Below, in pieces: positions 510 to 56,156 of a stretch of DNA of 64,000 bases. Position 1 is the stretch's first letter, and every line of letters begins with the position of its first letter. Location of the stretch: positions 13,591-77,590 of the forward strand of contig DATELB010000123.1 of assembly GCA_035277085.1 (NCBI GenBank), read 5' to 3'. The notes under the pieces are model-generated. The model worked only from the letters and a program-made list of their open reading frames with translations, made no database searches and was not told where the DNA came from. The position numbers were made by a program, and so were the translations under genes. Source of the DNA: Nitrospira sp. Lineage in GTDB: Bacteria; Nitrospirota; Nitrospiria; Nitrospirales; Nitrospiraceae.

Positions 510-1688
510 ATGGAACGGCAGATCGCCTGTTTATTCATTCCTGCCTTCGAAATTGCGCTGGCCCGCACGGACAATGCGGCGCTCCGGAATCGACCGGTCG
601 CCGTGGCCCCTGTTCATACCTCGCGGGCATTGATTCGCGAAGTGTCCCTTGAAGCGTCGCAGGAAGGCCTCCAGCCTGGCATGTCCGTCGAACTGGCGCG
701 GATGCTGTGTCCGGCTGTACGGATCGTTGCGCCGGACTCCTCGCGTGTGCAGGCGGCGCATCACGAACTGCAACAGCGAGCGCTCGCCTGTGCGCCGGCA
801 TGGGAATCGATCAGACCCGGCTCGCTGTTTCTTGACTTCACAGGCACGACCCGGCTGTTCGGTCCGCCGATCGATACGGCCACCCGTCTCGGCCGCGAAC
901 TGACCCGTCACCAGGGATGGCACAGCGTCATCGGATTGGCGGGCAGCAAGCTCGTCTCCCAATTGGCTGCCACCATGCTGAAACGACCGCCACAAGTCCT
1001 CTGGATTCATCCCGGCTCCGAACCGCCCTTTCTCGCTCCCCTGTCGTCGATGTTGCTGCCCGGCCTCTCGCGCACCTCGACTTCACCGGTGATGCAGCGG
1101 CTCGAGGATTTGAACCTGCGTACGCTCGGAGCCATCGCCTCGGTGTCGCTGGCACATCTGGAAGCGGCATTCGGCGCGTCCGCCGCTCTCCTGCATAACT
1201 GGGCGTTAGGCATCGATCCTTCGCCCGTGCATCCGCCTGCCGCACAGCCGGTCATCGAACGGACCATCGTTCTCGACCCGGATGAAGTGGACGACTCTCT
1301 GCTCCTCGGACGGCTGTATGGCGTGCTGGAGAAACTCTGCGCCTTACTCCGGGAGCAGCAACGGGTCTGTCGGCGGCTGCGGCTCTCCATCCGGCACAGC
1401 GACCACGTCGAGCACACCGTGCATGAACGATTGCCGCAGGGCACCTGCTGGGAAGCCGATCTTCAACCGGTGCTCACGCGTCTGTTCTACCGGTGTCTGC
1501 GCCGGCGAGTACGCCTGACACGGCTAACGTTGCAGGCCGAGAGATTGGAGCTGCCGGCCGAGCAACTGTCGCTGTTTGATGAGGCAGCGCCGGTCCGGCC
1601 GTCATCCCATCGGCTGTCCACCGCCCTGGACGTCATTCGAGCGAGATTCGGCGAGCGCTCTGTGCGCTGGGGGAAAACGTTGCGATGA
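510..1688 (+). CDS. ImuB-like, catalytically inactive Y-family (DinB-fold) polymerase
   Basis: Y-family layout (RPVAV, ASREG...GM, G.SKLVSQLA, little-finger domain). Catalytic carboxylates are missing: ACLFIPAF replaces DxDxFY and SIRPGSLFLD replaces SIDE. C-terminal beta-clamp motif QLSLF. Stop overlaps the dnaE2 start (ATGA). Confidence 0.85.
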   Translation: MERQIACLFIPAFEIALARTDNAALRNRPVAVAPVHTSRALIREVSLEASQEGLQPGMSVELARMLCPAVRIVAPDSSRVQAAHHELQQRALACAPAWESIRPGSLFLDFTGTTRLFGPPIDTATRLGRELTRHQGWHSVIGLAGSKLVSQLAATMLKRPPQVLWIHPGSEPPFLAPLSSMLLPGLSRTSTSPVMQRLEDLNLRTLGAIASVSLAHLEAAFGASAALLHNWALGIDPSPVHPPAAQPVIERTIVLDPDEVDDSLLLGRLYGVLEKLCALLREQQRVCRRLRLSIRHSDHVEHTVHERLPQGTCWEADLQPVLTRLFYRCLRRRVRLTRLTLQAERLELPAEQLSLFDEAAPVRPSSHRLSTALDVIRARFGERSVRWGKTLR

Positions 1689-4600
1689 CGCCCGCTTTCG
1701 TCCACCTGCACGTGCATTCGGAGTATTCGGCCATGCGTGGCGTGTCGTCCTTGGAACTCCTGTGCCGCTCCGCTCAGCGGTGCGGATTTCCCGCCATGGC
1801 CTTGACGGATACCAACGGATTGTATGGCGCGATCAGGTTCGTCGAAGAGGCCCGCCAACATGGCCTTCGCCCGATCCTCGGCGCCGAGTTGACGACCGGT
1901 GATCACCGGGCAATTCTCTTGGTCAAGACACCGGATGGGTATGCTTCACTCTGCCAACTCCTGTCGGAGCGGCATACCAACCTCTCATTTGACTTTCTCG
2001 AAGCCGTGCCGCGTTTTCGAGACGGCTTAATCGTGGCGACCGACGATGAATCTGCGCTTGTGCGATGGGCGGGGGAATCTCGGGAAGATCTCTACGTGGA
2101 ATTGACTCCCGGGCCGGCGATGCATCCCACTCTTTTGCTCAGCCGCCGCCTCGGGCTCCCACCGGTCGCCACCAACCGTGTGCATTTTTCCCGCGCCCAG
2201 GAATTTTCGACGCATCGGTTGTTGCGCGCCATCGCGATGAATACAACCCTCTCACGGCTGCGGGACGACGAGTGCGCCGCCCCGGCGCAATGGCTGATGT
2301 CCGGCGTCTGCATGGCGCGGCATTTCCCTCATGTTCCTGAGGCCTTGGAAAACACCGTTCGCATCGCCGAAGCCTGCCATAGCGAATGGCGTTTCGGCGA
2401 GACAATTTTTCCTGCCTTCCGCCGAATGAAGGATGAGGAGGCCTTTGCCCTCCTGAAAGAGAAAACCTACGACGGAGCGCTCGGACGCTACGGCAGTCTG
2501 TCGCGGGAAGTCCGTGAACGAATCGACAAGGAATTGACGGTCATCCGGCAGAAACGTTTCGCCCATTATTTTCTCGTCGTCGAGGAAATCGTCCGCCAGG
2601 CGCCTCGTACGTGTGGTCGGGGTTCAGTCGCCGCGTCGATCGTTTCCTTTTGCCTTCAGATCACGCATGTCGACCCGCTGAAACATCACTTGTTCTTCGA
2701 ACGGTTTTTGAGCCCCGGCCGTAAAGATCCGCCGGATATCGACATTGATTTTCCGTGGGACGAGCGGGACCCGATCCTCAACTGGGTGTTCCGGCAATAC
2801 GGTGAGCGCCAGGCGGCAATGGTCGCAAATCAAAACAGCCTCGGCTTCCGCGCGGCGATCCGCGAAACAGCGAAGGTCTATGGGATTCCCGCCGCGGAAA
2901 TCACGGCGGTCGCCGCGCGTGTCACCAGGCAACAAGCGCTTTTGCACTTTGCCCAGGCGCCGACCAATGAGCAATGGATCCGCCGGCTGTGCCGGGCTCT
3001 GACCCTCCAGGCGCCGTGGCCCTCCATTCTCAGAGACGCGCTTCAGACGCAAAATCATTTTCGCCATTTGTCAATGCACTGCGGCGGCGTCGTCATCGTT
3101 CCCGACGACATCCGACGGTATGTCCCCGTCGAGTTCACCGTGAAACGTCTGCCCGTCATTCAATGGGAAAAGGATCAAACGGAGGAGGCTGGGCTCGTCA
3201 AGATCGACCTGTTGGGAAACCGGTCGCTGGCCGTCATTCGCGACGCCATTGCCGCGGTAGCCAGTCATACCGGGCGGATCATCGATTATGCCGCATGGGA
3301 TCCGCTGAACGACGAGAGCACACAGGATCTCATCCGGCACGGCGATACCATCGGTTGTTTTTACATCGAATCTCCAGCCACCAGGCTTTTGCTCAGAAAG
3401 CTGTGGAATGGCATGCCGTCGGACCGCCTCGCGTCGGCCGACGTCTTCGAGTATCTGGTGATGGTGTCGTCGCTGGTCCGGCCGGCGGCAATCACCTTCG
3501 TGAACGACTTCATCCGGCGGGCGCATGGGGAAGCACATCGCCCCCTACATCCCTTGATGGAATCCATTTTACAAGAGACGCACGGCATCATGGTCTATCA
3601 GGAGGATGTCACGAAAGTCGCCATGGCGCTCGCCGATTTTTCGTTCGACGATGCGGATCAACTCCGCAAGGTCATCAGCAAAAAGCATAAGCACCGGCAA
3701 CTGCGGGATTATTACCACCAGTTCTGTCGCGGCGCCGCGAACAACGGTGCATCAGCCGCCACGATCGACAAGATTTGGAGGATGATCATGAGCTTTTCGG
3801 GCTACAGTTTCTGCAAGCCTCATTCGGCGAGCTATGCCCAGGTATCGTTCAAATCCGCCTATCTCCGTGCACACTACCCGGCTGAATTCATGGCGGCCGT
3901 CCTCAGCAATGAAGGCGGCTTTTATTCGACCTTTGCCTATCTTTCGGAGGCACGGCGGATGGGCCTGGCGATTCTGCCGCCGGATGTGAATGCCAGTGAC
4001 TGGGCCTATTCCGGTGAGGGAGACCGGCTGCGGATGGGCTTGATGCAAGTGAAGACCATCCCAAAAGCGCTGGGCACCAAGATTATGGCGGAGCGCGCCG
4101 AGAGTGGCCCTTACCGGTCGTTTCATGATTTTTTACGGCGCGTGAACCCGGAAGTCGGGCATAGCCGCGCCCTGGTCCGCGCCGGGTGCTGCGATTCCCT
4201 CTCAGGTGAGCTGACGAGGCCCGCCTTATTATGGCGGTTGTATGCCGGACCCCAAGCCGAATCCGGTCCATTACCCGTCCCGGACGAGTATCCCGCCTCT
4301 CAAAAACGGACGCATGAGATCGAGTCGTTCGGGTTTCTCGCCAGCCGTCATCCCTTGACGCTGTACCGCAAGCCGATCGAGCAGCTGCAGCCGGTACCCG
4401 CCTCAGAAATGCACCGGTTCATCGGAAGCCGCATTACCATGGTGGGATGGCTCATCACCGAGAAGCCCGTTGAAACCAAACAGGGTCAGGCGATGGAATT
4501 CATTACCCTCGAAGATTGCACCGCCCTCTACGATGCGACGCTCTTTCCCGAGGTGTATCGGCGTTGCAGTCATCTACTGTCAGCCAACCGCGCCTATCTC

Positions 4601-4777
4601 GTCGAAGGACTCGTTGAAGCGTCCTTCGGTGTCGTGACGCTCACGGTGCTCGAGCTACGCAGCCTGGAGTCCGGGCCAGACGACGACCGCCCGAAAAGAT
4701 CCGATCCACAAACATGGTATGATGATCCATGCGACGCCTCGTCCGATCCGCCCGTTCATTTCTTCCGGCTCACCTGA
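1685..4777 (+). CDS. dnaE2: Error-prone DNA polymerase III alpha subunit (DnaE2/ImuC)
   Basis: 1030 aa. PHP domain (HLHVHSEYS, TDTNGLYG), RGSVAASIV, PPDIDIDF, KIDLLG, GYSFCKPHSASYA, C-terminal OB fold. Directly follows the imuB-like gene. Confidence 0.88.
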   Translation: MTPAFVHLHVHSEYSAMRGVSSLELLCRSAQRCGFPAMALTDTNGLYGAIRFVEEARQHGLRPILGAELTTGDHRAILLVKTPDGYASLCQLLSERHTNLSFDFLEAVPRFRDGLIVATDDESALVRWAGESREDLYVELTPGPAMHPTLLLSRRLGLPPVATNRVHFSRAQEFSTHRLLRAIAMNTTLSRLRDDECAAPAQWLMSGVCMARHFPHVPEALENTVRIAEACHSEWRFGETIFPAFRRMKDEEAFALLKEKTYDGALGRYGSLSREVRERIDKELTVIRQKRFAHYFLVVEEIVRQAPRTCGRGSVAASIVSFCLQITHVDPLKHHLFFERFLSPGRKDPPDIDIDFPWDERDPILNWVFRQYGERQAAMVANQNSLGFRAAIRETAKVYGIPAAEITAVAARVTRQQALLHFAQAPTNEQWIRRLCRALTLQAPWPSILRDALQTQNHFRHLSMHCGGVVIVPDDIRRYVPVEFTVKRLPVIQWEKDQTEEAGLVKIDLLGNRSLAVIRDAIAAVASHTGRIIDYAAWDPLNDESTQDLIRHGDTIGCFYIESPATRLLLRKLWNGMPSDRLASADVFEYLVMVSSLVRPAAITFVNDFIRRAHGEAHRPLHPLMESILQETHGIMVYQEDVTKVAMALADFSFDDADQLRKVISKKHKHRQLRDYYHQFCRGAANNGASAATIDKIWRMIMSFSGYSFCKPHSASYAQVSFKSAYLRAHYPAEFMAAVLSNEGGFYSTFAYLSEARRMGLAILPPDVNASDWAYSGEGDRLRMGLMQVKTIPKALGTKIMAERAESGPYRSFHDFLRRVNPEVGHSRALVRAGCCDSLSGELTRPALLWRLYAGPQAESGPLPVPDEYPASQKRTHEIESFGFLASRHPLTLYRKPIEQLQPVPASEMHRFIGSRITMVGWLITEKPVETKQGQAMEFITLEDCTALYDATLFPEVYRRCSHLLSANRAYLVEGLVEASFGVVTLTVLELRSLESGPDDDRPKRSDPQTWYDDPCDASSDPPVHFFRLT

Positions 4778-5974: not shown

Positions 5975-6586
5975 TTACCTGGCGGTTTCAAACCAGTAAA
6001 TCACTTCGAACAGATGCAGATCCGTGCCGCGGCTCTCTGAGCCATAAATGGTCGCGTCCGAATAGTGTTGAAAATGATACCCCGCGCCAAACGGACCGGC
6101 GAAGCGGCTTGTGATACCGAACGTCCATACGAATTGAAAAGGACCGCCGAAATCCTGCGATCCAAATGTCTGGCGGGTGAAGAGGCCGCCGCCGGCGCCC
6201 ATATCGATCGTGACGAGTCCGTCCTTGCGACCGAAGGCGATGTCGAGCGGGACGAATGTGAACACGCCAGCGGTGTCTTGCGCGCCCCTGAGGACACCGG
6301 CGGAGCCGAGCATGCGCATTCTGAAAATCCAGCCGGAGCCGACTTCCCACTCCCACGGGAGCCGCGCGGTGAGGGCGACATCACCCTGGTAGAACTTCTC
6401 CCTTTGTTCTTCGCCAAGCGGGGATCCGCCGCTGAATCCCCCTCTGAGCTGAAACGATTCAAGCGCGAGTTCGCCCGAGGTACTCAGGGACGGAAGTGAA
6501 ATAATAAGCCCTGAGACTGCCAGACTTCTGCAGAGCGACAGACGGACCCTCCGAATAGGTGCCGATAGGCCGGCGTGCTCGCTCAT
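5975..6586 (-). CDS. PagL-like acyloxyacyl hydrolase (lipid A deacylase-type outer-membrane barrel)
   Basis: Signal-like N-terminus, amphipathic beta strands, DFGGPFQF and YHFQHYSDA (PagL H-x-S-N-A motif, with Asp in place of Asn). Confidence 0.65.
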   Translation of the reverse strand: MSEHAGLSAPIRRVRLSLCRSLAVSGLIISLPSLSTSGELALESFQLRGGFSGGSPLGEEQREKFYQGDVALTARLPWEWEVGSGWIFRMRMLGSAGVLRGAQDTAGVFTFVPLDIAFGRKDGLVTIDMGAGGGLFTRQTFGSQDFGGPFQFVWTFGITSRFAGPFGAGYHFQHYSDATIYGSESRGTDLHLFEVIYWFETAR

Positions 6587-46335: not shown

Positions 46336-47313
46336 ATGGCTTCCGACACGACGCACGATACAGACCCGTCCTCACAAATCATTCCGGCCTTTTGCCTCAT
46401 TGGAGTGGTCGCATTGCTCAGTGCGATTACCCCAACGATGAAGTATGTCCTTCAGCACAGCAGCCTGACATTTCTCTCCATCGCGAACGGACGTATCGTC
46501 ATCGGCTTTCTCTTTCTCGCCGCCGTCACGGCTTGTTTTGATGGGAAAGGGCTACGGTCGCTCGGCATTGCCGATACCGTGCGTTTTGGCCTTCTCGGTT
46601 TGCTTGGCGTGGGATCCTATGTGGTGGCGGCATACGGACTTGTGTATACGAATGTCACGCACTACGCGTTGATTTATAGTCTCCTTCCCACCTTTACCGC
46701 CTTTTTCAGCTGGTGCCTCTCCAAAGATCGCCTGACAGGCTCCAGTCTCATCGGGATCGTACTGTCCTGGGGAGGTTGTCTGGTCGCCTTATTCCCAACT
46801 CTCGAACCGCGAGCAATTGACTTCGCATCGGGAGATCCGCTGGTACTGCTTTTCACATTCATGATGGCCGCGCATATCGTTTTCAGCATGTCTATCGTGA
46901 GGCACCATGGCGTTCTTACCGCCAACACCGCGATGTTCGGCATCACCGCACTTTTAGTCTCGGGTTGCACCGTTGCTTGGGGGGAGCCGGCGCCGCCGAC
47001 TGATCTCTGTTGGACGGTTTTGGGCGGCGTGCTCTTTATCGGACTAGGAACGGCCAGTGTCTTCCTGTTGCGTTGCCGATCTTTGCAGTCTTTGACGCCG
47101 GCAACGGTGGCCGCCTATCACAACTTCATTCCGATCTGCACGATCGGTATCGCCCATCTCTCGCTCGGGGAACCCCTCACCGGGCAAACGCTGGTCGGGG
47201 CATCGGCTGTTTTATTGGGAACCGAGTTGGTACGGCGAAAGCCAGCTCTGGGGTACCAACCGGCCTCGCAGCGCCGGTGGGAACTGTCTGATGCGGCCGG
47301 AAAGCGTTCATGA
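46336..47313 (+). CDS. EamA/DMT family transporter
   Basis: About ten TM helices in two repeats, with GL.YTNVTHYALI and GEPLT...LVGAS; start reassigned to ATG 46336. Confidence 0.85.
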   Translation: MASDTTHDTDPSSQIIPAFCLIGVVALLSAITPTMKYVLQHSSLTFLSIANGRIVIGFLFLAAVTACFDGKGLRSLGIADTVRFGLLGLLGVGSYVVAAYGLVYTNVTHYALIYSLLPTFTAFFSWCLSKDRLTGSSLIGIVLSWGGCLVALFPTLEPRAIDFASGDPLVLLFTFMMAAHIVFSMSIVRHHGVLTANTAMFGITALLVSGCTVAWGEPAPPTDLCWTVLGGVLFIGLGTASVFLLRCRSLQSLTPATVAAYHNFIPICTIGIAHLSLGEPLTGQTLVGASAVLLGTELVRRKPALGYQPASQRRWELSDAAGKRS

Positions 47314-47391
47314 AAAGACGAGGACAGAGGCACCGATTCCGCCCCTCCAAGGAGGGATACTTTCGTCGGTTCATGCACAGTACACTGGCGC

Positions 47392-47763
47392 ATGCACGAG
47401 ATGAGACCGTACCATCGGGGTCTTTACCGGCTCGCAGTCACCTACCCTGCCATGTACTGCGTCACGTCGACCGTAGGAGAGGGAAAAGTCACCAACCTAT
47501 CGGCCATGGGATGCGCCATCGAGACGGACGAGCCGCTCCTGATGAATCAGCAGATGGCGCTTCGTCTGCTCCTTCCTGACAAATCGGATTCATTGCCCAT
47601 CGACGCCGCAGAGGTAAAATGGGTCACAGGCACGCGGGCGGGTGTAGAGTTTATACACTTGGAGCGTGAAGCCAACCTTCGCCTGCATTCATTCGTGTGG
47701 GACAAGATGATTGAGCGAATCCAACTCCTTCAGCAGCAGCGGGCCGCCTCACCGAAACTCTGA
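47392..47763 (+). CDS. Stand-alone PilZ domain protein
   Basis: RGLYR, NLSAMG, A.V.WV, AGVEF. Confidence 0.8.
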   Translation: MHEMRPYHRGLYRLAVTYPAMYCVTSTVGEGKVTNLSAMGCAIETDEPLLMNQQMALRLLLPDKSDSLPIDAAEVKWVTGTRAGVEFIHLEREANLRLHSFVWDKMIERIQLLQQQRAASPKL

Positions 47764-48747
47764 CGCGCCCCGCTTGCCGGCTCTTCCCATGGCAGCCAAA
47801 CAGAGAAGCCCGATCCCGATCCAGACCAATTCACGGAAGCGCCTCAAGAGCGCGAATGTGATGCCTGTGACGTCCGAATAGCCAAACGCCTTTAACAGCA
47901 GCAAATTCCCTCCGTCCTGCGCTCCTAGGCTCCCCGGAATAAAAAAAGTTCCTCCCTTGATGAACACCGCCAAGGCTCCGATGGAAATCGCGGACAAGAG
48001 ATTTGCCGGTTCCCCCAAGCACGCGATTATGACGTAGACTTCCACCGCTTCGGCCAGCCAGCCGAGAAGGTAGAGGCCCGTGGACGCATAGAAGGCGGAT
48101 CGATACCGTGTGTAAAAATCGAGGATGATGCCGTCCAGCGAGCGCAGTTTGTCTTCGCGCGCTTCCAGAAAGGCAATATGGAGTCCGAGCCCCCGCAGGA
48201 CACGGAGACCCAACATGAACATCCCGCGTTTTTGCACGAAAATGAAGGCGCCGATCCCAAAGCACAGTAAGGCGGTGGATAGCAGTGCGCCTGCGGCTAT
48301 CTGACCCGAGGAGCCGGAAGAACCGAGCATCCAGAACGCCAACACGATACCGACGAGGATGAACAGCACTTGCGCGAGCGTCATAATGGTTTTGGCGATG
48401 ACGACCGACGCGAGGCCCTCAACCAGTGGAATCTCGTGTCGCTGGAGGAGATAGGCCTTCAGCGGCTCACCGCCCACGTATGCGGTGGGCGTCGTCATAT
48501 TGACAACTTCACCGGCTGTTCTGATCGCCAAAATCTTCCAAAATGCAATTGCCTTTGCCGCTGAGCCGAGCGTGAGCTTCCACCCGTAGGCTTCAAACAC
48601 ATACATCACCAGCGAGGGAATCAAGATGACAGCGAGTGCGCCCGGTCCAAGCCGCGCGGCCGCTTCATAGATTCTCTCGGGACCGATATGCCAGACGAGG
48701 AGACTGACCGTAAGAAAGCCGAGGACAAATAGCAGATAGCGCCACAC
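47749..48747 (-). CDS. UPF0104 / lysylphosphatidylglycerol synthase TM (flippase-like) protein
   Basis: Multi-TM; NMTTPTAYVGGEPLKAY, PGSLGAQDGG, LLRRFRELVW. Probable GTG start at 48747. Confidence 0.85.
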   Translation of the reverse strand: MWRYLLFVLGFLTVSLLVWHIGPERIYEAAARLGPGALAVILIPSLVMYVFEAYGWKLTLGSAAKAIAFWKILAIRTAGEVVNMTTPTAYVGGEPLKAYLLQRHEIPLVEGLASVVIAKTIMTLAQVLFILVGIVLAFWMLGSSGSSGQIAAGALLSTALLCFGIGAFIFVQKRGMFMLGLRVLRGLGLHIAFLEAREDKLRSLDGIILDFYTRYRSAFYASTGLYLLGWLAEAVEVYVIIACLGEPANLLSAISIGALAVFIKGGTFFIPGSLGAQDGGNLLLLKAFGYSDVTGITFALLRRFRELVWIGIGLLCLAAMGRAGKRGASEFR

Positions 48748-48851
48748 GCTAGCAGGCGGGACACGAGGGCCGGGACATGGGAACCGGCGCAGCCCACACG
48801 TCCCCGGTTGATTGTACGAGCAGGTGCCGGTGCATGGCTTCCCGTCAAAGA

Positions 48852-50240
48852 TTACGAGGAGAATCGGTCGGCCACGGCAGCCGGCCTGATGACCCATACC
48901 ATGACCGCCGCAAACGCCATCGAGCCCGTTGCGGCAAGCCATAGAAACACTTCAAGCTTTCCGAACACTGCAAAGAGTAGCACGACAACAGAAAAATCCC
49001 TGCTGGCCACATTCTTGAGCATGAAATCCGACCAGGCCGCGTGGAGCGGGGTTTTCCATTCACTGGCACTTCTGATTTTCTGGGCCTTGTTTACTAGGAG
49101 AAACGACAGAGCGTTGCCAAAAACGGCGGCGGCGCCCAGGGCAAGGGGAACCCAGGCGCGATCGGCATTACCCGCCTGCACATATGCGCCGACAGCAATT
49201 CCGCCGAAAATGGCCATGTGCACGACATTATCCAACGCGAGGTCCAACCACGCGCCGAACGGAGACTCGGTAAACGTCAGGCGCGCCACCTCGCCGTCGC
49301 TACAGTCTATGACCGCCGCGAATTGGAACAGTAAGGCGGCGACGACGCCGCCGGTATAGCTGCCGGCGGCAAATGCGGCCGCTGCGAAGAGGCCGATCAC
49401 CGTGGCTAGGATGGTAATGGCGTTGGGGGACCAGCCCATCGCGACGAACGCTCGCGTACACCAGAGGGACAGCCGGCGATTGAAATACCGATCGACGAAT
49501 CCTTCAAATTCCCCTTTCAATGACGAATACAGCCGACGCTCTGCCTCGTGTAAACCAGACTCCTCGAACAACAGTTGATACCAGCTGGCCGGACCGTCGG
49601 TTCCAGTGGCGAGCCTCCTCACGTGGCCCTCGACGGATGCTTGCTCCAACCATCGGCCGATCGGCGCCGGGTCTCCCTGAGCCGCCAGTTGAGCGGCGGC
49701 GTTCAATTGTGATGCGGGCATCACGATCACGTCCGCGATTTCGCCGCCCAATGCCCGCCTCCATGCCCGCGGCCTGGCGTCGGCACCATCACCCCTGACG
49801 TCGGGTGGCGCCACGAGGATCGCCTCTCCCGTGCGAACATCGCGCCGCAGGTCTTCGATCAGCGATCGGGAGAACAGGGTGCCGACCCCCGACAACAGGC
49901 AGAACCCGCGGACTTCCGCGGCGAGCGCTTCCCATGTTCGGGGGTCGTCCAACGGGAATTCCCGAATCGGCATCCAACGCACCGGCACCGCCACCCGGGG
50001 GCCTCTGAGGAGTGCCTGCTTCAACAGTTCCTCCTCGGGTCCCGCAAGGACGATTAGCTGCCTGATGCCCGCTCGTTGGAGCGTGAGCACAGTCCGTTGA
50101 AAAAGGCTCATGCCGACGATGGGAGTCAGCGGGTCCACGGCTTTCCGTGCGGAGCCGTCAAACAGATCAATGGAAGGCAATAGCACGGCCGTGGAGAGTC
50201 CCTGAAGCTCGGTGCTTTTATCCAAAATCGGTTCGTTCAT
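48852..50240 (-). CDS. CDP-alcohol phosphotransferase fused to a degenerate N-terminal nucleotidyltransferase-like domain
   Basis: N-terminal IVGMSLFQRTVLTLQRAGIRQL lacks the LAAG motif; C-terminal SPNAIT, DCSDGEVAR...GAWLD...DN signature. Confidence 0.88.
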   Translation of the reverse strand: MNEPILDKSTELQGLSTAVLLPSIDLFDGSARKAVDPLTPIVGMSLFQRTVLTLQRAGIRQLIVLAGPEEELLKQALLRGPRVAVPVRWMPIREFPLDDPRTWEALAAEVRGFCLLSGVGTLFSRSLIEDLRRDVRTGEAILVAPPDVRGDGADARPRAWRRALGGEIADVIVMPASQLNAAAQLAAQGDPAPIGRWLEQASVEGHVRRLATGTDGPASWYQLLFEESGLHEAERRLYSSLKGEFEGFVDRYFNRRLSLWCTRAFVAMGWSPNAITILATVIGLFAAAAFAAGSYTGGVVAALLFQFAAVIDCSDGEVARLTFTESPFGAWLDLALDNVVHMAIFGGIAVGAYVQAGNADRAWVPLALGAAAVFGNALSFLLVNKAQKIRSASEWKTPLHAAWSDFMLKNVASRDFSVVVLLFAVFGKLEVFLWLAATGSMAFAAVMVWVIRPAAVADRFSS

Positions 50241-50265
50241 GGTCCGCTGCCGCTTGATCGCGAGT

Positions 50266-50988
50266 CTAGGAAAGCCTGGGCAAGATCTCGCGCTCCGCCC
50301 TCTCTACATCTTCCGGAAAATCGATTTCAGTCCAAGGCAAGCCCCCAATGACCTCGTACCCGACCTTGACGTCCTTGAAAAACCCGATCAGTGCGTCTTC
50401 GTATTCCATGTGCCAGGCGTCACGATCCACGAACGTTCGGAGTGACGCCACGACATGGGGAGCATCCGCGTGACGCACCCTGAGGAATCCGACGCCCTCA
50501 CCGGCATGGTCGTATCGTGACGGCATGTGTTTGGTAAGCGCGACCACGCGGCCCCCTTCGGCGACCACCATGCATTCTTCTCCCGTCTGTTTGACCGAAT
50601 CGTCCATCAGCAGCGCATTCGGATAGGCTGATCGCAGCAACCGGCGCAGGATCTCCCGATCAAAGAGTACATCGGCATCCATGATCACGACGTCATCGTC
50701 CATCACCGTCCGCGCCACCCAAAGGGAGGAAATGCTGCCGCGGTGAAAATGTTCGTTGACGAGGAACTGAACGTGGACGCCGAAGGAGTTGGATTCTGCC
50801 GCAGCGCGAATCATTTCCTGCTTGTAACCTACGACGATGTCAGCGCGCTTCACACCTAAGCTCGACAAGGCCGACAAATAGCGGGACAGCAAGGTCTGAC
50901 CACCGATCTCAATGAGGCATTTGGGGCGATGCTGGGTGACGGGCCAGAGGCGCTTTCCGACTCCGGCCGCCAGAATGACGGCTTTCAT
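50266..50988 (-). CDS. LicC/PntC-type (phosphocholine/phosphonate) cytidylyltransferase
   Basis: KAVILAAGVGKRL, PKCLIEIGG, MDADVLFD, GEGVG, WTEIDFPED. Confidence 0.85.
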   Translation of the reverse strand: MKAVILAAGVGKRLWPVTQHRPKCLIEIGGQTLLSRYLSALSSLGVKRADIVVGYKQEMIRAAAESNSFGVHVQFLVNEHFHRGSISSLWVARTVMDDDVVIMDADVLFDREILRRLLRSAYPNALLMDDSVKQTGEECMVVAEGGRVVALTKHMPSRYDHAGEGVGFLRVRHADAPHVVASLRTFVDRDAWHMEYEDALIGFFKDVKVGYEVIGGLPWTEIDFPEDVERAEREILPRLS

Positions 50989-52070
50989 GGACGCTTGCCG
51001 ATCTCGTTTTCGAAGGCGTCGAGGAACTCGACAAATTGCTGCTCGGTGAGCGCACCCATATTGGCGATGCGGAAAATGCTGTGCTCAAGGTTGCCCTGCC
51101 CGGCATAAATCACATACCCGCGCGCCTTCAGTCGATCATGCAGCGTCTGATAGGAAAGCCCCTCCGGCAGATAGTAGGCAGTGATGCTGTTGGATTGCCG
51201 GTCTGGGGGCAGGACAGGCCTGACGCCGATTTTCGCCATTCGTTCGCGGATCAACGTCGCCATCCGTTTATAGCGCTGAATCCGCTTGGCCACCCCTTCT
51301 TCCAGCAGTTCGTTGAGCGCCTCGTCAAACGCGTAATAAATTTGGACGGCAGGGGTAAACGGCACGACTCCCCGGCCTTGATCGTCGACGTAGTGCGTCA
51401 AATGCAAGTACAAGGACCGCTTGGGATACGTCCGCATTCGTTCTAAAAATCCTTTCCGTACCAGCACGAAAGAGACGCCGGGGAATCCCTGAATGCATTT
51501 TCCGGCGGTTCCGGCCACCATATAGATCTTCGAACCGGCAATATCGATATGCTCTCCTGCCAACGCGCTCACGGCGTCCAAAATGAACACGCGGTTTAAG
51601 CCGTCAACGACTTCCGCAACGGCTTTTCCGGGATTCAGCAATCCTGTGGTCGTCTCATGGTGAACCATTCCTACCGCATGGACCTCGGGATGCTGGCGGA
51701 GCGCCAAACGCAACCGCTCAGGATCTGGGCGCTCTGTCCACTCATGCTTGAGCTCCGACACTCCCAAGCGGTGGAGGCCGACCATCTGAGACATCCGCTC
51801 TCCATACACGCCGTTATTGATGATTAACGCGCGCTTGCCGTGTGGAATCGAGGACATCAAGGCCGATTCGACGGCCGCGGTACCGGAGCCGGTGATTAGC
51901 ACGGCCGTATAATCTGCCTCCGCACCGGGCACGAAGGCTTTGAGCAGCTTTGACTGAATTCCCTGCTGTAACTCTGCAAAGTCCGATTCTCGGTGACAGA
52001 TATCGGGACGCAACAGCGCCTGCCGTACACGCTCCGACACATTCACCGGTCCTGGATTCAACAACATCAT
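50985..52070 (-). CDS. 2-aminoethylphosphonate aminotransferase-like protein (class V PLP; PhnW/AepZ family)
   Basis: LLNPGPV, ITGSGTAAVE, NNGVYGER, HHETTTGLLNP, DAVSA, GKCIQGFPG, FRIANMG. Confidence 0.85.
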   Translation of the reverse strand: MMLLNPGPVNVSERVRQALLRPDICHRESDFAELQQGIQSKLLKAFVPGAEADYTAVLITGSGTAAVESALMSSIPHGKRALIINNGVYGERMSQMVGLHRLGVSELKHEWTERPDPERLRLALRQHPEVHAVGMVHHETTTGLLNPGKAVAEVVDGLNRVFILDAVSALAGEHIDIAGSKIYMVAGTAGKCIQGFPGVSFVLVRKGFLERMRTYPKRSLYLHLTHYVDDQGRGVVPFTPAVQIYYAFDEALNELLEEGVAKRIQRYKRMATLIRERMAKIGVRPVLPPDRQSNSITAYYLPEGLSYQTLHDRLKARGYVIYAGQGNLEHSIFRIANMGALTEQQFVEFLDAFENEIGKRP

Positions 52071-52101
52071 GATGAGAAGATCCTGTCGGGGTTGGCGGCC
52101 G

Positions 52102-52680
52102 TTATGCAATGCCGGTCATAAACCGCTTCGTGATGTCCGGCGGATCGAGCACGATCCGTCCGGCGTCTTCCGCAAACTCATTCACCTTGATCAGCAGCAA
52201 GCTGGGGCCGTCCTTCTTGAGCATTTCCTTGAATTCGTAGATCAGATCGTCGCGGTCGAGCGCGCGTTCGACATTCACGTAGCCTGCCGCTTTGGCCACT
52301 TTGTCGAGGGGCACGACATTCGAAATAGTGGGCTGGTTCCCCGTCGTGCCGTAGACCTCGTTGTCGAAGACCACATGGACAAAATTTTTCGGTCGCAATG
52401 CGCCGACCGTCGCCAATGTGCCCATGCCCATCAAGACGTTCCCGTCGCCGTCGAACGTGACCACTTGTTTGTGTGGTTTGGCCAGCGCCACGCCAAGTGC
52501 GATGGCCGGCGCATTTCCCATGGAGCCGATCATATAAAAATGCGTCGGACGATCGGCGATCTTCTGGACCTCGCGCGATGGAAATCCGTTGCAGACGATC
52601 AGAGGCTGATCCGTCAGCAATTCCAGCAGCGCGGCCATCGCCTGGGCTCGGCTGATCAATGTCCCCTGCTCCGGCCTCAT
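52102..52680 (-). CDS. TPP-dependent phosphonopyruvate/sulfopyruvate decarboxylase beta subunit (ComE-like)
   Basis: NGFPSRE, FYMIGSMG, TPP motif DGDGNVLMGMG...DNEVYGTTGNQPT. Confidence 0.85.
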   Translation of the reverse strand: MRPEQGTLISRAQAMAALLELLTDQPLIVCNGFPSREVQKIADRPTHFYMIGSMGNAPAIALGVALAKPHKQVVTFDGDGNVLMGMGTLATVGALRPKNFVHVVFDNEVYGTTGNQPTISNVVPLDKVAKAAGYVNVERALDRDDLIYEFKEMLKKDGPSLLLIKVNEFAEDAGRIVLDPPDITKRFMTGIA

Positions 52681-53174
52681 GGATGTAAGCCCTTCACAAC
52701 GCCTTTAGTGATGAACAGCGCAAGGGGTATTCTCTGTTTCATAAACGTCTCGGCCACCCACTTGAAATCTTCGACCGCCGTCTTTTCGGTCAATGTGCGA
52801 TGAGGGATCTTCATCGTATCCAGGAATTGGGGCATGACCTCCCCCATCACCAGATGTTCGGGAGCGTCTTTGCCGCCTTGGCCACGCCAGGACACGATGA
52901 GAATGCAGGGCTGCTTGTAAATAACGTTCAAGGAAATCAGCGTGTTGAGGGAAGTCCCCAGCCCGGAGTTTTGCATGAGTACGGCGGGAATCTTGCCGCC
53001 CATATACGCTCCCGCAGCCATGGCCACCGCTTCGTCCTCGCGGACGGCCGGCGTATACAGGCGCCGATCCATTAATTCAGCGATAATGCCGCCGAGGATT
53101 GAATCCGGCACACCGGTGAAAAAATTCACCCCCATGTCCTGCAAAACCTGAACGAAGGCATCGCTTTCGATCAT
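52677..53174 (-). CDS. TPP-dependent phosphonopyruvate/sulfopyruvate decarboxylase alpha subunit (ComD-like)
   Basis: Real start ATG 53174 (or 53186); the rest of the ORF-track call is antisense to the next gene. FFTGVPDS, REDEAVAMAAG, MQNSGLG, WRG...DAPEH..MG. Confidence 0.85.
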   Translation of the reverse strand: MIESDAFVQVLQDMGVNFFTGVPDSILGGIIAELMDRRLYTPAVREDEAVAMAAGAYMGGKIPAVLMQNSGLGTSLNTLISLNVIYKQPCILIVSWRGQGGKDAPEHLVMGEVMPQFLDTMKIPHRTLTEKTAVEDFKWVAETFMKQRIPLALFITKGVVKGLHP

Positions 53175-53210
53175 GACCGGCGTCATCCTCCAACAGGAAA
53201 AATTTCGCGC

Positions 53211-53240
53211 ATTATAAGCCATGGCAAGACGCATTCTCAA
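53211..53240 (-). promoter_or_regulatory. Promoter of the phosphonate-type operon
   Basis: TTGAGA (53240-53235), 18-nt spacer, perfect TATAAT (53216-53211). Confidence 0.7.
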
Positions 53241-53253
53241 GGAAACGAACCCG

Positions 53254-53282
53254 TTGCACGGCTTCCCACTGCATGATAGCGT
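53254..53282 (+). promoter_or_regulatory. Divergent promoter of the exported-protein pair (leaderless geometry)
   Basis: TTGCAC, 17-nt spacer, extended -10 TG-A-TAGCGT, then 6 nt to ATG 53289 with no SD. Confidence 0.6.
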
Positions 53283-53288
53283 TACCGC

Positions 53289-53795
53289 ATGCGACTGATT
53301 GGCGCGTTGCTGGCAGGCTGGATGATCGCGGTTCCTGCAGTCGCCGGCGCCGTGTCGATGACGAACGATCCCAAAGGCTTTCGCAACATCGTCTGGGGCA
53401 CTGCACTGCATGCGCGGGCGGATTTGGAACCGACCGGCCGCGGACGTAACATCATCGAATATCGTTTCAAAAATTCGGCGCCTTCTTTCGCCGATATTCC
53501 TGTAGAAAGCCTGCATCTCTCGACGGTAGACGGCCAATTCGCGCGGGTGACGATCCGATATCGGGGCGAAGAGACCCATAAAAAGATCCTCGCGTTTCTC
53601 GAGTCGGAATTCGGCCCGACCGAACGCCTGCCGGGTCAAATGTTGCGCGGCCTGAATCAGCAATACACCTGGCGAGGCAGCGAGTCGGAGATCAATCTCA
53701 CCTATCAGGCCGGCACAGAGCGCGGCTATTTGTTTTTGGACAGTCGCACCCTGGCACCCCGATTCAACGATTTGCTCGCCGATACGGCGGAGTAA
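53289..53795 (+). CDS. Exported hypothetical protein, paralog 1
   Basis: Signal peptide; DPKGFRNIVWG, FARVTIRY, LESEFGP, YTWRG. Confidence 0.75.
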   Translation: MRLIGALLAGWMIAVPAVAGAVSMTNDPKGFRNIVWGTALHARADLEPTGRGRNIIEYRFKNSAPSFADIPVESLHLSTVDGQFARVTIRYRGEETHKKILAFLESEFGPTERLPGQMLRGLNQQYTWRGSESEINLTYQAGTERGYLFLDSRTLAPRFNDLLADTAE

Positions 53796-53799
53796 CGCC

Positions 53800-54348
53800 A
53801 TGCTGGATTGGCGAATGTTCACACGCACCGTTAGCCTTATCGCCCTCGTCGGCGCCGCTTTGTCATCGGACGGCGTCGCGCTCGCCGTGCAGATGAAGGA
53901 AGATCCTCGCGGGTTCGAGGGAATTCCGTGGGGAGCGACCCTTTCCGAATCCGAGACGTTTGGAAAGGTGGAGGATGCCGGCCGGCTGAAGACCTATGAA
54001 CTCAAAGGCGGAACTCCCTCTTTCGGTCCCGCGAAAGTCGAGTCAATGAGATTCACCACCGTCGATGACCGCTTCGCTCGGGTCACCGTCCGATACGAAG
54101 GCAAAGAAACCCACGACCAGCTGCTAAACTTCCTGCAGTCCCGCTACGGGCCGCTCGATCGCACGCCTGGCCAGTTCGCTGGAGGGGCGGTCAAGCTGTT
54201 TGCGTGGCAAGGTGAAGAAACCGCTGTCAGCTTGCGCTATGAGATTCGCACGGACCGGGGAATCATCTTCTTCGAAAACCCTTCGCTCGCGAGCCGCATC
54301 GAGGGCGCGATGGCGCCCGAACCCGACGTGGGCGGTGCCACGTATTAA
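53800..54348 (+). CDS. Exported hypothetical protein, paralog 2
   Basis: Signal peptide; DPRGFEGIPWG, FARVTVRY, LQSRYGP, FAWQG; co-linear with paralog 1. Confidence 0.75.
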   Translation: MLDWRMFTRTVSLIALVGAALSSDGVALAVQMKEDPRGFEGIPWGATLSESETFGKVEDAGRLKTYELKGGTPSFGPAKVESMRFTTVDDRFARVTVRYEGKETHDQLLNFLQSRYGPLDRTPGQFAGGAVKLFAWQGEETAVSLRYEIRTDRGIIFFENPSLASRIEGAMAPEPDVGGATY

Positions 54349-54783
54349 TGGAGACCGCCGCAGATAGTTTTCATGAACGCGCTCTCGCATCATGAGCCGT
54401 CATCAAAGGCCAAACCATTTCTTGAGCGCGCCTTCGGCGGCTCAACGAAGCCAACATCATAGAGATTGCCGTCATTCGGGGTTCTAAAGAAGAAGCGATT
54501 GCGCTGCCCAACATCCCGCTATCGGACAGCATCTACCGCTTGACTAAGCGCCCGACGAATTCATCGGAATGGCGATGTTTTCCGACCGCCGGTCGCAAGA
54601 ACGGTACAAAGCCTCCGGCTTTCACGAAGCCCGCAGCGTCAGTAAGGCGTCCTTCACAGATCTCGTCCAGGAACTGCTTGACGAGGGACACCACGTCAAA
54701 ATGCCGTGCCGGTCTTCAAAGGCTGGATAAAAGTCGATCCCTTCGAGGAGTATCAGGAAGCCTGGGCCCGAACCCGCCACTGA
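54348..54783 (+). pseudogene. Decayed nucleotidyltransferase (LicC/PntC-like) gene remnant
   Basis: Fragments in shifting frames: IKGQTI (54402), LERA (54421), LNEANIIEIAVIRGSKEEAIALPNI (54441), RY, a deletion, EFIGMAMFS...QERYKASGFHEARSVSKASFTDLVQELLDEGHHV (54557-54697), then AVPVFKGWIKVDPFEEYQEAWARTRH-stop (54703-54783). Confidence 0.8.
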
Positions 54784-54930
54784 GTCCCACGTAGATCCAC
54801 GTAGTCTTCGTTTGCTCGACCACCACGCGATTTCTGCCCCCCTTCAGGAGGGTTCTCGACCCCCTCGATCTGGGAATGGCTGAAACCTGCCCCTGGGGTA
54901 TTCTCGAGATGTGTCGATGAGGAGGTCCCC

Positions 54931-55350
54931 ATGAAATGCAGCTTGCCTGAACAGAATCTCGCCGCCCCCCGCGCCCATGCGCCTCTGGACCGCCGCTACG
55001 CCGAACGAGCCCTGATCCACAATGAAGTCACCTATACCAGCACCGAGGGCGCCAGGTTCACGACATCCAGCGGGTCCCTGCAAGATCTCTCGAAAACCGG
55101 CTGCAAAGTGGTGGGAACGACGCTTCCTGCGATCGGCGGCAGTCTCACCATCACCTTGTACTTGAACGACGGCCAGGCGCCCTTGCGCCTGACAGACGCT
55201 ACGGTGTCATGGATCAAGGGCAATGTCTTCGCCGTTCGGTTTCCGAAGCTGACGGAAGAGGAACGGAAACGGATTCAAGCAGCCATTTGGAAACATGTCA
55301 GTTTGTCCGCAGCCAAGGACCAGCGAACAGCGTTTCGCATCGTTCCGTAA
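54931..55350 (+). CDS. Stand-alone PilZ domain protein
   Basis: SD GGAGG; RYAER, DLSKTG, A.V.W, FAVRF. Confidence 0.85.
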   Translation: MKCSLPEQNLAAPRAHAPLDRRYAERALIHNEVTYTSTEGARFTTSSGSLQDLSKTGCKVVGTTLPAIGGSLTITLYLNDGQAPLRLTDATVSWIKGNVFAVRFPKLTEEERKRIQAAIWKHVSLSAAKDQRTAFRIVP

Positions 55351-55384
55351 CGAAGCGGCATACGAACGGCACCACGGAGGAAGG

Positions 55385-55780
55385 ATGAGACAGCTGAGCA
55401 TCGAGCAGTCGCGCAGGATTGCGCACAAGTCAACTCGCGAAAACCGTCGAGGGACCGAGCGCGTCCCCACGCAGTTCAGTTTGATGTACTCCGGAATGTG
55501 CGACGGCCGCATGCTCATCGGGAGCGGCATTGTCAGAAACGTCTCCGAATCCGGGATCGGCATCCATGGCAATCATCCAGTCAAGCTCGGGATGGACCTC
55601 TCACTCTTTATCGAACTTCCCGGCGTGGAGGAACCTGTGTGCATTGCCGAAAGCCGGGTATCTTGGGTATCGGGACGGCGCTTCGGAGTTGAGGTAAACG
55701 CGCCCAAACTGGAAACCCAGAATGAGCTGAGGTTTTACGTCTGGAATCATCTGCATCGGCACAGCGCCAAGAAAGGATAA
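55385..55780 (+). CDS. Stand-alone PilZ domain protein
   Basis: Start reassigned to ATG 55385 after GGAGGAAGG; RGTER, NVSESG, V.WV, FGVE. Confidence 0.85.
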   Translation: MRQLSIEQSRRIAHKSTRENRRGTERVPTQFSLMYSGMCDGRMLIGSGIVRNVSESGIGIHGNHPVKLGMDLSLFIELPGVEEPVCIAESRVSWVSGRRFGVEVNAPKLETQNELRFYVWNHLHRHSAKKG

Positions 55781-55784
55781 GGCC

Positions 55785-56156
55785 ATGAAACAAACACGAG
55801 CGCCGAGGCTTACGCATAGAACCCGTCCCCTCTGCGACCGGCGTGCAGAACACCGCCTGCCGGTCGATTTCCGGCTGATGTATTCCGCACAGGACGAGAG
55901 GGAAGAATTGATCATGGGCGACGGCAGCGTTCTGGATCTCTCCAGCAAAGGTCTCCACATCCGCGGCAATAGGCCCGTGAAGCCGGGCCTTGACATGACG
56001 TTGTTTCTGTATCTTCCCGACGGCCAAGACCCTTTGTTCGTCCTCAGCGCCAAGGTGGCATGGTCGAAGGGCCATCAATTCGGGGCGGAGATTCTGAAAA
56101 TGAATCTGCGCGAGCGCAATCGATTGCGGTATTTTCTCTCCTCGAATCCCCGGTAA
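55785..56156 (+). CDS. Stand-alone PilZ domain protein
   Basis: RAEHR, DLSSKG, AKVAW, FGAE. Confidence 0.85.
   Translation: MKQTRAPRLTHRTRPLCDRRAEHRLPVDFRLMYSAQDEREELIMGDGSVLDLSSKGLHIRGNRPVKPGLDMTLFLYLPDGQDPLFVLSAKVAWSKGHQFGAEILKMNLRERNRLRYFLSSNPR

Follow-up and report, generated by a model that had tools for sequence, protein, structure and literature searches.

What does a biosynthetic operon do once the gene for its own first enzyme is gone? The question is raised by 64,000 nucleotides of DNA from Nitrospira sp. (NCBI GenBank assembly GCA_035277085.1, contig DATELB010000123.1, positions 13,591 to 77,590 of the forward strand). We call this whole stretch the window and count positions from its first letter. 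The window carries a six-gene operon (47749-53240, minus strand) whose predicted products resemble enzymes that turn phosphonopyruvate into a membrane head group derived from 2-aminoethylphosphonate (AEP). Beside the operon in relatives lies a gene for a protein related to phosphoenolpyruvate (PEP) mutase, the presumed source of phosphonopyruvate. In the window, that gene has been deleted.

Our preferred reading, to which we give roughly even odds (about 0.5), is that the operon is the Nitrospira version of an AEP head-group pathway and that this strain has lost the pathway's own first enzyme. The operon has intact motifs, it is conserved and constrained throughout the genus, its ancestral partner is a non-canonical mutase gene, and the deletion of that gene from the window is recent. 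Nitrospira are the dominant nitrite oxidizers and complete ammonia oxidizers in soils, fresh water, and wastewater plants. The operon and its lipids are undescribed for Nitrospira in the literature that we searched.

A Predicted Head-Group Operon with Complete Catalytic Signatures

Open reading frame (ORF) calls, together with Pfam and NCBIfam profile scans, resolve 47749-53240 into six closely packed genes on the minus strand. A first-pass annotation, made from the letters without database searches, had described a six-gene operon of stated gene identities, and all six genes lie where it placed them; its gene calls and its reading as an operon hold. Neighboring genes overlap or nearly touch, with 4-bp overlaps between the two decarboxylase genes, alpha and beta, and between the aminotransferase and nucleotidyltransferase genes. 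None of the six genes contains a frameshift or a stop. Every catalytic signature is kept: the GDG...N motif for thiamine pyrophosphate (TPP), the cofactor-activating glutamate, the lysine context for pyridoxal phosphate (PLP), the GxGxR of the nucleotidyltransferase, and the motif of cytidine diphosphate (CDP)-alcohol phosphotransferases.

The first two genes encode the predicted subunits of a TPP-dependent 2-oxo-acid decarboxylase. The alpha subunit (Ppd/ComD-like, 169 amino acids [aa]; 52677..53186, minus strand) begins with an ATG at 53186 directly behind GGAGG, matches TPP_enzyme_N, and contains the cofactor-activating glutamate motif REDEA. Its best solved relative is 9iz3_A, annotated as "putative phosphonopyruvate decarboxylase alpha." The beta subunit (Ppd/ComE-like, 192 aa; 52102..52680, minus strand) matches TPP_enzyme_C at 76.3 bits and contains the TPP motif GDG-x26-N. 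TIGR03297, the phosphonopyruvate decarboxylase model, gives 127.6 bits with alpha and 171.9 bits with beta, each on one half of the model. The cut-off of that model, 312.5 bits, is made for the single-chain enzyme, so a split decarboxylase cannot attain it. Both subunits also stay below the cut-offs of the ComDE models, alpha with 106.5 bits on TIGR03845 (cut-off 147.95) and beta with 180.4 bits on TIGR03846 (cut-off 221.5).

The next two genes would carry the decarboxylation product onward. The third encodes a class-V aminotransferase of the PhnW/AepZ type (50985..52070, minus strand; the longest ORF extends to 52109). TIGR03301, the PhnW-AepZ family, is its best family by a wide margin; at 340.5 bits the protein lies slightly below the cut-off of 360.8, and its PLP-lysine context reads GKCIQ. 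The fourth gene encodes a nucleotidyltransferase (240 aa; 50266..50988, minus strand) that matches the Pfam families NTP_transferase and NTP_transf_3 and retains the signature GVGKR. Its best solved relatives are PntC-AEPT (6pd1, 65.7 bits) and then LicC (1jyk, 46.5 bits). This enzyme is a predicted PntC/LicC-like cytidylyltransferase with a putative preference for AEP.

The fifth gene specifies a CDP-alcohol phosphotransferase with an N-terminal nucleotidyltransferase-fold domain (462 aa; 48852..50240, minus strand), in which PF01066 (CDP-OH_P_transf) marks a six-helix membrane domain. The full motif D-x2-DG-x2-AR-x8-G-x3-D-x3-D is present, with DCSDGEVARLTFTESPFGAWLDLALD beginning at residue 312, and the motif is kept in 67 of the 67 loci compared. 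By sequence, the protein is closest to the Archaeoglobus proteins AF2299 (4o6m, 64.2 bits) and 4mnd (52.6 bits). An AlphaFold model of moderate confidence (predicted local distance difference test score 65) gives 4mnd (E 1.9e-11 over 473 columns) and 4o6n (template modeling score 0.65) as the best full-length matches; the N-terminal domain alone (230 residues of the model) matches PntC, RmlA, and MurU. The model thus supports an architecture like that of IPCT-DIPPS and AF2299, in which a cytosolic nucleotidyltransferase-fold domain would precede the membrane domain. On NF041135, the IPCT-DIPPS equivalog model, the protein reaches 88.6 bits, far short of the 580 required, and the match covers the C-terminal half only. 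A look-up by exact sequence gave no match for this transferase. The N-terminal domain lacks GxGxR yet is highly conserved, and it probably has a binding or regulatory role rather than serving as a second catalyst.

The last gene encodes a putative MprF-type flippase-like membrane protein (LPG_synthase_TM; 47749..48747, minus strand). Its longest ORF extends to 48942; the GTG start at 48747 coincides with the start of the gene in a relative. The protein scores 109.7 bits on PF03706 (gathering threshold 33.4) and 72.4 bits on TIGR00374 (cut-off 43.2), above both thresholds, and 149.5 bits on the HpnL model TIGR03476, below its cut-off of 195.65. In one mutase-less subclade, the LPG_synthase_TM gene occurs in three tandem copies (L051:9864-13467 and L062:13392-16891; also L041 and L057).

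A putative sigma-70-like promoter site, TTGAGA-18-TATAAT (53211..53240, minus strand; 11 of 12 consensus matches), lies directly upstream of the alpha start and is the only strong site of this kind within 47300-54900. A single promoter had been proposed for the operon, and one strong promoter-like site is indeed present, as a consensus match only. In a scan against shuffled sequences, three sites were found where 2.7 are expected, without enrichment overall. The ORF at 52069..52803 (plus strand) and other antisense ORFs within the operon were treated as chance ORFs.

A Recent Deletion of the Mutase Gene

Divergent from the operon runs a second unit, which in relatives ends in the mutase gene. 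Specifically, in the relative L001, this unit consists of two small secreted paralogues followed by a gene for a 559-aa fusion of PEP_mutase and NTP_transf_3 domains, 1.3 kb upstream of the operon. The two small genes remain in the window (53289..53795 and 53800..54348, both plus strand). Their products are hypothetical secreted proteins with signal-peptide-like N-termini and 39% identity to each other, and neither matches any family in the Pfam and NCBIfam scans. Nitrospira loci keep the pair in this place whether or not they retain the mutase gene.

Of the fusion gene itself only a pseudogene remnant is left (54398..54780, plus strand). Three tblastn pieces in three frames match residues 323-365, 464-532, and 531-559 of the relative's 559-aa protein, and the remnant thus retains only parts of the nucleotidyltransferase half. 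The first-pass annotation had placed a remnant at 54348; the remnant is real, and it is a decayed piece of the missing first-step gene. It had likewise found no PepM in the cluster, and this holds for the whole window: its six frames contain neither the PEP mutase motif EDKx5NS nor relaxed variants of it, and tblastn with the PEP-mutase-like domain returns no match in the 64 kb.

Comparison with relatives establishes what was lost. As far as the start codon of the fusion, the metagenome contig L097 shares 94.6% DNA identity with the window, and its fusion gene is intact. Relative to L097, the window is deleted for ~961 bp, that is, for the whole mutase domain from the start codon; relative to L104, it has a second deletion, of ~308 bp, within the nucleotidyltransferase domain. 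Contigs from three independent soil or rhizosphere metagenome runs (X1, X2, and X5) span both junctions, so the deletion is no assembly artifact. Given that so close a relative as L097 is still intact, the loss of the mutase gene must also be recent. Several independent samples of soil and rhizosphere contain the deleted allele, which thus belongs to an established lineage.

A Probable Partner Mutase with a Variant Loop

The deleted partner is a mutase relative of an unusual type. Where PEP mutases read EDKx5NS, the gating loop of the partner fusion reads EDNVYPKRCS, with the substitutions K116N and N122C (mussel numbering). Its closest solved structure is nonetheless a Streptomyces PEP mutase (5unc, 284 bits), with phosphonopyruvate hydrolase next. 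In an alignment to 5unc and 2dua, the active-site residues W44, S46, G47, D58, D85, D87, E114, K120, S123, R159, and H190 are identical in the partner; among the active-site residues compared, only K116N, N122C, and L48F differ.

The partner belongs to a large clade of PEP-mutase relatives, spread over several phyla, with an EDNxFPKRCS loop. Among the 119 closest homologues that cover the loop, none has EDKx5NS and nearly all have EDN...CS. They come from Nitrospirota, Tectomicrobia, Binatia, Planctomycetota, Methylomirabilota, Acidobacteriota, Omnitrophota, and a Bacillus thuringiensis. In other phyla, members with EDNxFPKRCS adjoin genes for the classic consumers of phosphonopyruvate: split or single-chain TPP decarboxylases, a 2-hydroxyacid dehydrogenase together with a nucleotidyltransferase-aminotransferase fusion, or homocitrate-synthase-like and aconitase genes. 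From this gene context, the members of the EDN...CS clade are probably active PEP mutases whose loop departs from the canonical one. The EDKxxxxxNS search proposed in the first-pass annotation would miss the real partner, because its loop reads EDNxYPKRCS. The literature that we searched offers nothing relevant on a non-canonical PepM; a Clostridioides difficile paper that mentions a PepM homologue is unrelated.

Two side observations concern this clade, members of which lie at L001:4137-5816 (minus strand), L085:8001-8894, L086:8001-8888, L168:7001-7888, L169:7001-7903, and L170:7001-7921. The nucleotidyltransferase half of the fusion (L001:4137-4931, minus strand) reads AAGFEKQL where the operon's own enzyme reads AAGVGKRL; the mutase-fused domain lacks the second glycine and the arginine of GxGxR and may be non-catalytic. 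In addition, a gene of ~315 aa adjoins an EDN..CS mutase-like gene in three unrelated contexts (L085:6777-7724, L168:8729-9694, and L169:7926-8870), and its product shows faint matches to alpha/alpha-toroid proteins (squalene-hopene cyclase or prenyltransferase-like).

Repeated Loss of the Mutase, Lasting Constraint on the Operon

The loss in the window is one of several in the genus. We surveyed one genome per species with the aminotransferase as query and obtained 80 Nitrospira/Nitrospiraceae loci. The operon genes are present in all 80 wherever the contig extends. The mutase gene is present beside the operon in 29 loci, is cut by the contig end in one, is absent from 29 with enough upstream sequence, is decayed in two, and is undecidable in 19. 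As to the co-occurrence of operon and pepM, which had been put forward as a check, the mutase is thus adjacent in 29-30 of the 61 informative loci. N. moscoviensis (NSP M-1) is a mutase-bearing strain; N. lenta, isolate NS4, and clade-A and clade-B comammox genomes count among the mutase-less Nitrospira. One of the two decayed copies is frameshifted; the other is a chimera with another member of the family. In the chimera (L024:702-1457, minus strand), the N-terminal ~105 residues hardly differ from those of the Nitrospira mutase-like protein, and the remainder derives from a different isocitrate-lyase/PEP-mutase family member that has an EDTLQPARFGH loop and no nucleotidyltransferase domain. 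A further candidate remnant, in L010, was rejected, as the gene there is merely cut at the contig end.

A neighbor-joining tree built from five operon proteins places the loci without the mutase in approximately seven separate groups. The count rests on a gene tree, and recombination could inflate it; that several losses were independent is secure, because recognizable remnants persist in three separate places. Two of the mutase-less clades, of 18 and 12 species, are old: amino-acid identity within them has fallen to 83% and 87%, respectively. No replacement gene was found inserted in the mutase-less loci; the extra genes of one clade are only its tandem flippase-like copies.

Viewed from the mutase, the linkage is strong. 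In a metagenome scan with the mutase domain, the operon is adjacent in 53 of 57 informative loci. One exception, L140, keeps the downstream synteny and not the operon side. The other three belong to a sister lineage of Nitrospiraceae in which the mutase gene lies near ispA. In this sister lineage (L163-L167, e.g., L165:1286-2950), the fusion has 71% identity and sits beside a metallo-beta-lactamase-fold gene, ispA, and an epimerase.

Loss of the mutase has not been followed by decay of the other genes. In the mutase-less loci, each operon gene is recovered as one full-length match free of stops, and none of the 29 loci has lost a catalytic motif. The median pairwise ratio of nonsynonymous to synonymous substitution rates (dN/dS) is 0.08 in mutase-less and 0.05 in mutase-bearing pairs for alpha, 0.02 and 0.04 for beta, 0.06 and 0.05 for the aminotransferase, 0.06 and 0.07 for the nucleotidyltransferase, and 0.11 and 0.13 for the phosphotransferase. 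Purifying selection on the operon is therefore strong in lineages that lost the mutase, too. For alpha, five of the 14 mutase-less pairs were ignored (dN above 2, from mis-registered short alignments), and the other nine range from 0.00 to 0.10. Convergent substitutions after mutase loss, which could signal altered specificity, were not found: three conservative columns of ~1470 changed, each in at most three of the seven loss clades.

The operon also appears to be transcribed. In two sediment metatranscriptomes, contigs of a mutase-less lineage reach 10-75x over the two small genes and from alpha through the phosphotransferase gene, compared with ~0-9x over the flanks of the same lineage and about zero over the flippase-like gene. 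This contrast with the flanks argues that the signal is RNA, although DNA carry-over could contribute. For the window's own lineage, only scattered transcript contigs (97-99% identity) occur, in four soil metatranscriptomes. One option raised at the outset was that the pathway is decaying. That is correct for the mutase gene alone. Given that the operon's genes are intact, with dN/dS of 0.02-0.11, complete motifs, and transcription in mutase-less lineages, the operon is no relic. Across the genus, then, the remaining operon genes stay in place and in use long after mutase loss. Such retention implies either another source of phosphonopyruvate or a second, mutase-independent substrate for the decarboxylase.

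A Proposed Pathway and Its Alternatives

Under the reading that we favor, the split TPP enzyme would decarboxylate a 3-substituted pyruvate, ancestrally the phosphonopyruvate made by the neighboring PEP-mutase-like fusion. The PhnW/AepZ-like aminotransferase would convert the resulting phosphonoacetaldehyde to AEP, and the PntC-like enzyme would combine AEP with cytidine triphosphate (CTP) to give CMP-AEP, the cytidine monophosphate (CMP) derivative. The IPCT-DIPPS/AF2299-like transferase would then pass the aminoethylphosphonyl group to a membrane-bound alcohol, most simply diacylglycerol, and the MprF-like protein would translocate the product across the membrane. Every substrate and product in this scheme is predicted from sequence. 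For the pathway to function in this strain, phosphonopyruvate would have to be supplied from outside the locus; the simplest supplier would be a second PEP mutase encoded elsewhere in the genome.

Several observations weigh against this reading. In the 29 mutase-less species, the 10 kb on either side of the operon contain no gene of the mutase family, whatever its type, and no second PEP mutase occurs in the 64-kb window. In the mutase-less isolate NS4, a comparison of the contigs with two mutase genes finds no Nitrospira-type mutase at a nucleotide identity of at least 80%; flanking control genes were detected there at ~80% identity and at genome depth. For each of the losses, at least seven of them independent, one would have to postulate a substitute supply of phosphonopyruvate. 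The ancestral first step is itself only presumed, because the partner fusion departs from the EDKx5NS motif and, with 273.5 bits on TIGR02320, falls below the NCBIfam cut-off of 319.55. Moreover, the literature searched contains no lipid or 31P data for Nitrospira. A separate observation on the NS4 culture (runs X25 and X26, compared with L023 and L165) is that a second organism in it carries a mutase-like fragment, at a depth of 3-4x versus ~1400-1540x; this organism probably entered as a contaminant or belongs to the co-culture as a minor partner.

A rival notion, which generalizes the PepM-independent route of the first-pass annotation, is that the operon's normal substrate does not derive from PEP mutase at all. 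The decarboxylase would act on another 3-substituted pyruvate, and the neighboring mutase would only add an optional phosphonate variant, since dropped by many lineages. One candidate is 3-phosphohydroxypyruvate, which would be converted to phosphoglycolaldehyde, phosphoethanolamine, and CDP-ethanolamine, and finally to an ethanolamine-phosphate lipid. We take this idea seriously while judging it doubtful. Indirect support comes from the persistence of the operon where the mutase has been lost time and again. About half of the species loci are without the mutase after approximately seven independent losses, the old mutase-less clades (18 and 12 species; 83-87% identity) keep their genes intact and constrained, and relocated mutase copies are rare, with none seen in isolate NS4 (at least 80% identity). 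Loss also leaves no signature in the enzymes, as expected if the main substrate had never depended on the mutase. However, the nearest characterized relatives (Ppd, PhnW/AepZ, and PntC) are all phosphonate-specific, a canonical PEP mutase may still lie elsewhere in the genome, and the alternative substrate is hypothetical. There is a chemical objection as well: phosphate is a beta-leaving group on the TPP enamine, so that, with 3-phosphohydroxypyruvate, its expulsion would tend to prevail over the protonation that yields phosphoglycolaldehyde. The basis for such beta-elimination in TPP chemistry is the turnover of fluoropyruvate and the reactions of phosphoketolase and sulfoacetaldehyde acetyltransferase. 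By analogy with these TPP enzymes, the 3-phosphohydroxypyruvate route would be chemically awkward, although it fits the logic of the genes. The literature searched contains no such pathway, which would therefore be new, and nothing relevant on a phosphohydroxypyruvate decarboxylase. In the same vein, it is conceivable, if on balance unlikely, that about half of Nitrospira species, this strain among them, run the conserved operon with no PEP mutase in the genome, on a mutase-independent supply of the 2-oxo acid. That supply could be the de novo route from phosphohydroxypyruvate to ethanolamine lipids or a second route to phosphonopyruvate.

For the window alone, one could instead suppose that the operon is a freshly orphaned relic and that too little time has passed for the downstream genes to decay. 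The deletion is indeed very recent, with L097 intact at 94.6% identity; the remnant is still recognizable; the low dN/dS of the window against its closest kin is mostly a record of evolution that preceded the loss; and transcripts of the window's own lineage are sparse, amounting to a few contigs in four soil metatranscriptomes. Yet six other losses were followed by long retention of an intact, constrained operon, with transcription in one lineage; the window's six genes have neither frameshift nor stop and their catalytic motifs are complete; and the deleted allele marks an established lineage found in several independent soil and rhizosphere samples. We therefore find a relic improbable, with what small chance it has in this one strain stemming from the recency of the loss. 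More improbable still, to the point of being nearly negligible, is a sulfopyruvate decarboxylase of the ComDE type, with which the operon would make sulfoacetaldehyde and taurine and no phosphorus head group. The alpha/beta split is that of ComD/ComE, and beta slightly favors the sulfopyruvate model (180.4 bits, versus 171.9 bits with the phosphonopyruvate model). Conversely, both ComDE models stay below cut-off, alpha favors the Ppd model, the annotation of the best solved relative is that of a putative phosphonopyruvate decarboxylase, and the ancestral partner is related to PEP mutase and is none of ComA, ComB, and ComC. We know of no chemistry that cytidylylates a sulfonate for a CDP-alcohol phosphotransferase, and a sulfonate product thus leaves three operon genes unexplained.

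Genomic Surroundings

The operon resides among core-chromosome genes. Its neighbors in the window include ImuB/DnaE2, prs, ispE, ftsZ/ftsA/ftsQ at the start of the dcw cluster, CstA, and a TetR/resistance-nodulation-division (RND) pump, and GC content is even along the whole window. Specifically, the segments 510-4777 (plus strand) and 5975-6586 (minus strand) hold a pair of genes for an ImuB-like Y-family polymerase and a DnaE2-like error-prone polymerase, then a uracil-DNA glycosylase (UDG)-family gene, with a gene for a PagL-like lipid A 3-O-deacylase nearby. Small PilZ-domain genes, four in all, lie on both sides of the operon: one is downstream (47392-47763, plus strand) and three are in tandem past the remnant (54931-56156, plus strand). 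The same arrangement is present in relatives, and these genes could place cyclic di-GMP signaling near the locus.

Implications

Given that the head-group operon is found in every Nitrospira locus recovered, and on the core chromosome, its product appears to be a standard component of the Nitrospira membrane. Such a component is absent from the literature that we searched. Beyond the genus, published phosphonate inventories demand a perfect match to EDKx5NS (PMC6697681, PMC8942020, PMC12723261) and would thus discard the EDN...CS clade. Because the EDKx5NS filter removes proteins with EDNxFPKRCS, inventories from 2019-2025 may have underestimated the capacity for phosphonate biosynthesis, above all in soil phyla without cultured members.

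We offer the EDNxFPKRCS mutase clade and the mutase-less yet constrained operon as leads. The only known step that forms a carbon-phosphorus bond has been lost repeatedly while the genes downstream of it were strictly retained. This constitutes a natural experiment, and we anticipate that it will bring to light either mutases that have escaped notice or a substrate that the enzyme set obtains without one.

Relation to Known Systems

Among known systems, ComDE of coenzyme M biosynthesis shares with the Nitrospira decarboxylase the two-subunit TPP subfamily and, by prediction, a 3-substituted pyruvate as substrate. The two differ in that the Nitrospira subunits lie below both equivalog cut-offs and the downstream genes need a phosphorus-containing product; genes for ComA, ComB, or ComC do not occur among the window ORFs scanned. 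At the other end of the operon, the last gene encodes a full-length PF03706 member, as in the lipid-translocating half of MprF. Unlike MprF, this putative flippase, assigned by family, carries no synthase domain, and it falls below the HpnL cut-off.

The phosphotransferase finds its counterparts in IPCT-DIPPS (4mnd) and AF2299 (4o6m) of Archaeoglobus fulgidus, which combine the same nucleotidyltransferase-fold domain with a six-helix phosphotransferase and a complete motif. The logic is shared, too: a cytidylyltransferase, separate or fused, makes a CDP- or CMP-activated donor. However, identity is only ~19%, the Nitrospira N-terminal domain lacks GxGxR, and the gene context is of the aminoethylphosphonate type and not inositol phosphate. 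The product of DIPPS is a soluble solute. In contrast, the flippase-like gene points to a membrane destination for the Nitrospira product. The eukaryotic-type Kennedy pathway follows the same logic in its last two steps, namely activation of a 2-aminoethyl-phosphorus compound with CTP and then transfer to diacylglycerol by a CDP-alcohol phosphotransferase. The Nitrospira operon differs from it in that there is no ethanolamine kinase, the cytidylyltransferase has the LicC/PntC fold and not that of ECT, and the precursor would be made de novo by decarboxylation and transamination.

The closest parallel is the Ppm-Ppd-AEPT-PntC cluster (Rice et al. 2019, PMC6697681). After the mutase, the order of enzymes is the same: TPP decarboxylase, class-V AEP-type aminotransferase, and LicC-family cytidylyltransferase. 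As in about a third of the described Ppm proteins, the mutase of the window's relatives is fused to NTP_transf_3, and in both systems a cluster holds more than one nucleotidyltransferase (PMC6697681). The window, in contrast, has no mutase, and the EDNxYPKRCS of its relatives would have been filtered out of that inventory. The Nitrospira decarboxylase has two chains, and the transferase is a membrane enzyme like IPCT-DIPPS and AF2299. Finally, whereas the known clusters lie in variable surface-glycan islands, the Nitrospira cluster is a core chromosomal operon, kept genus-wide beside dcw.

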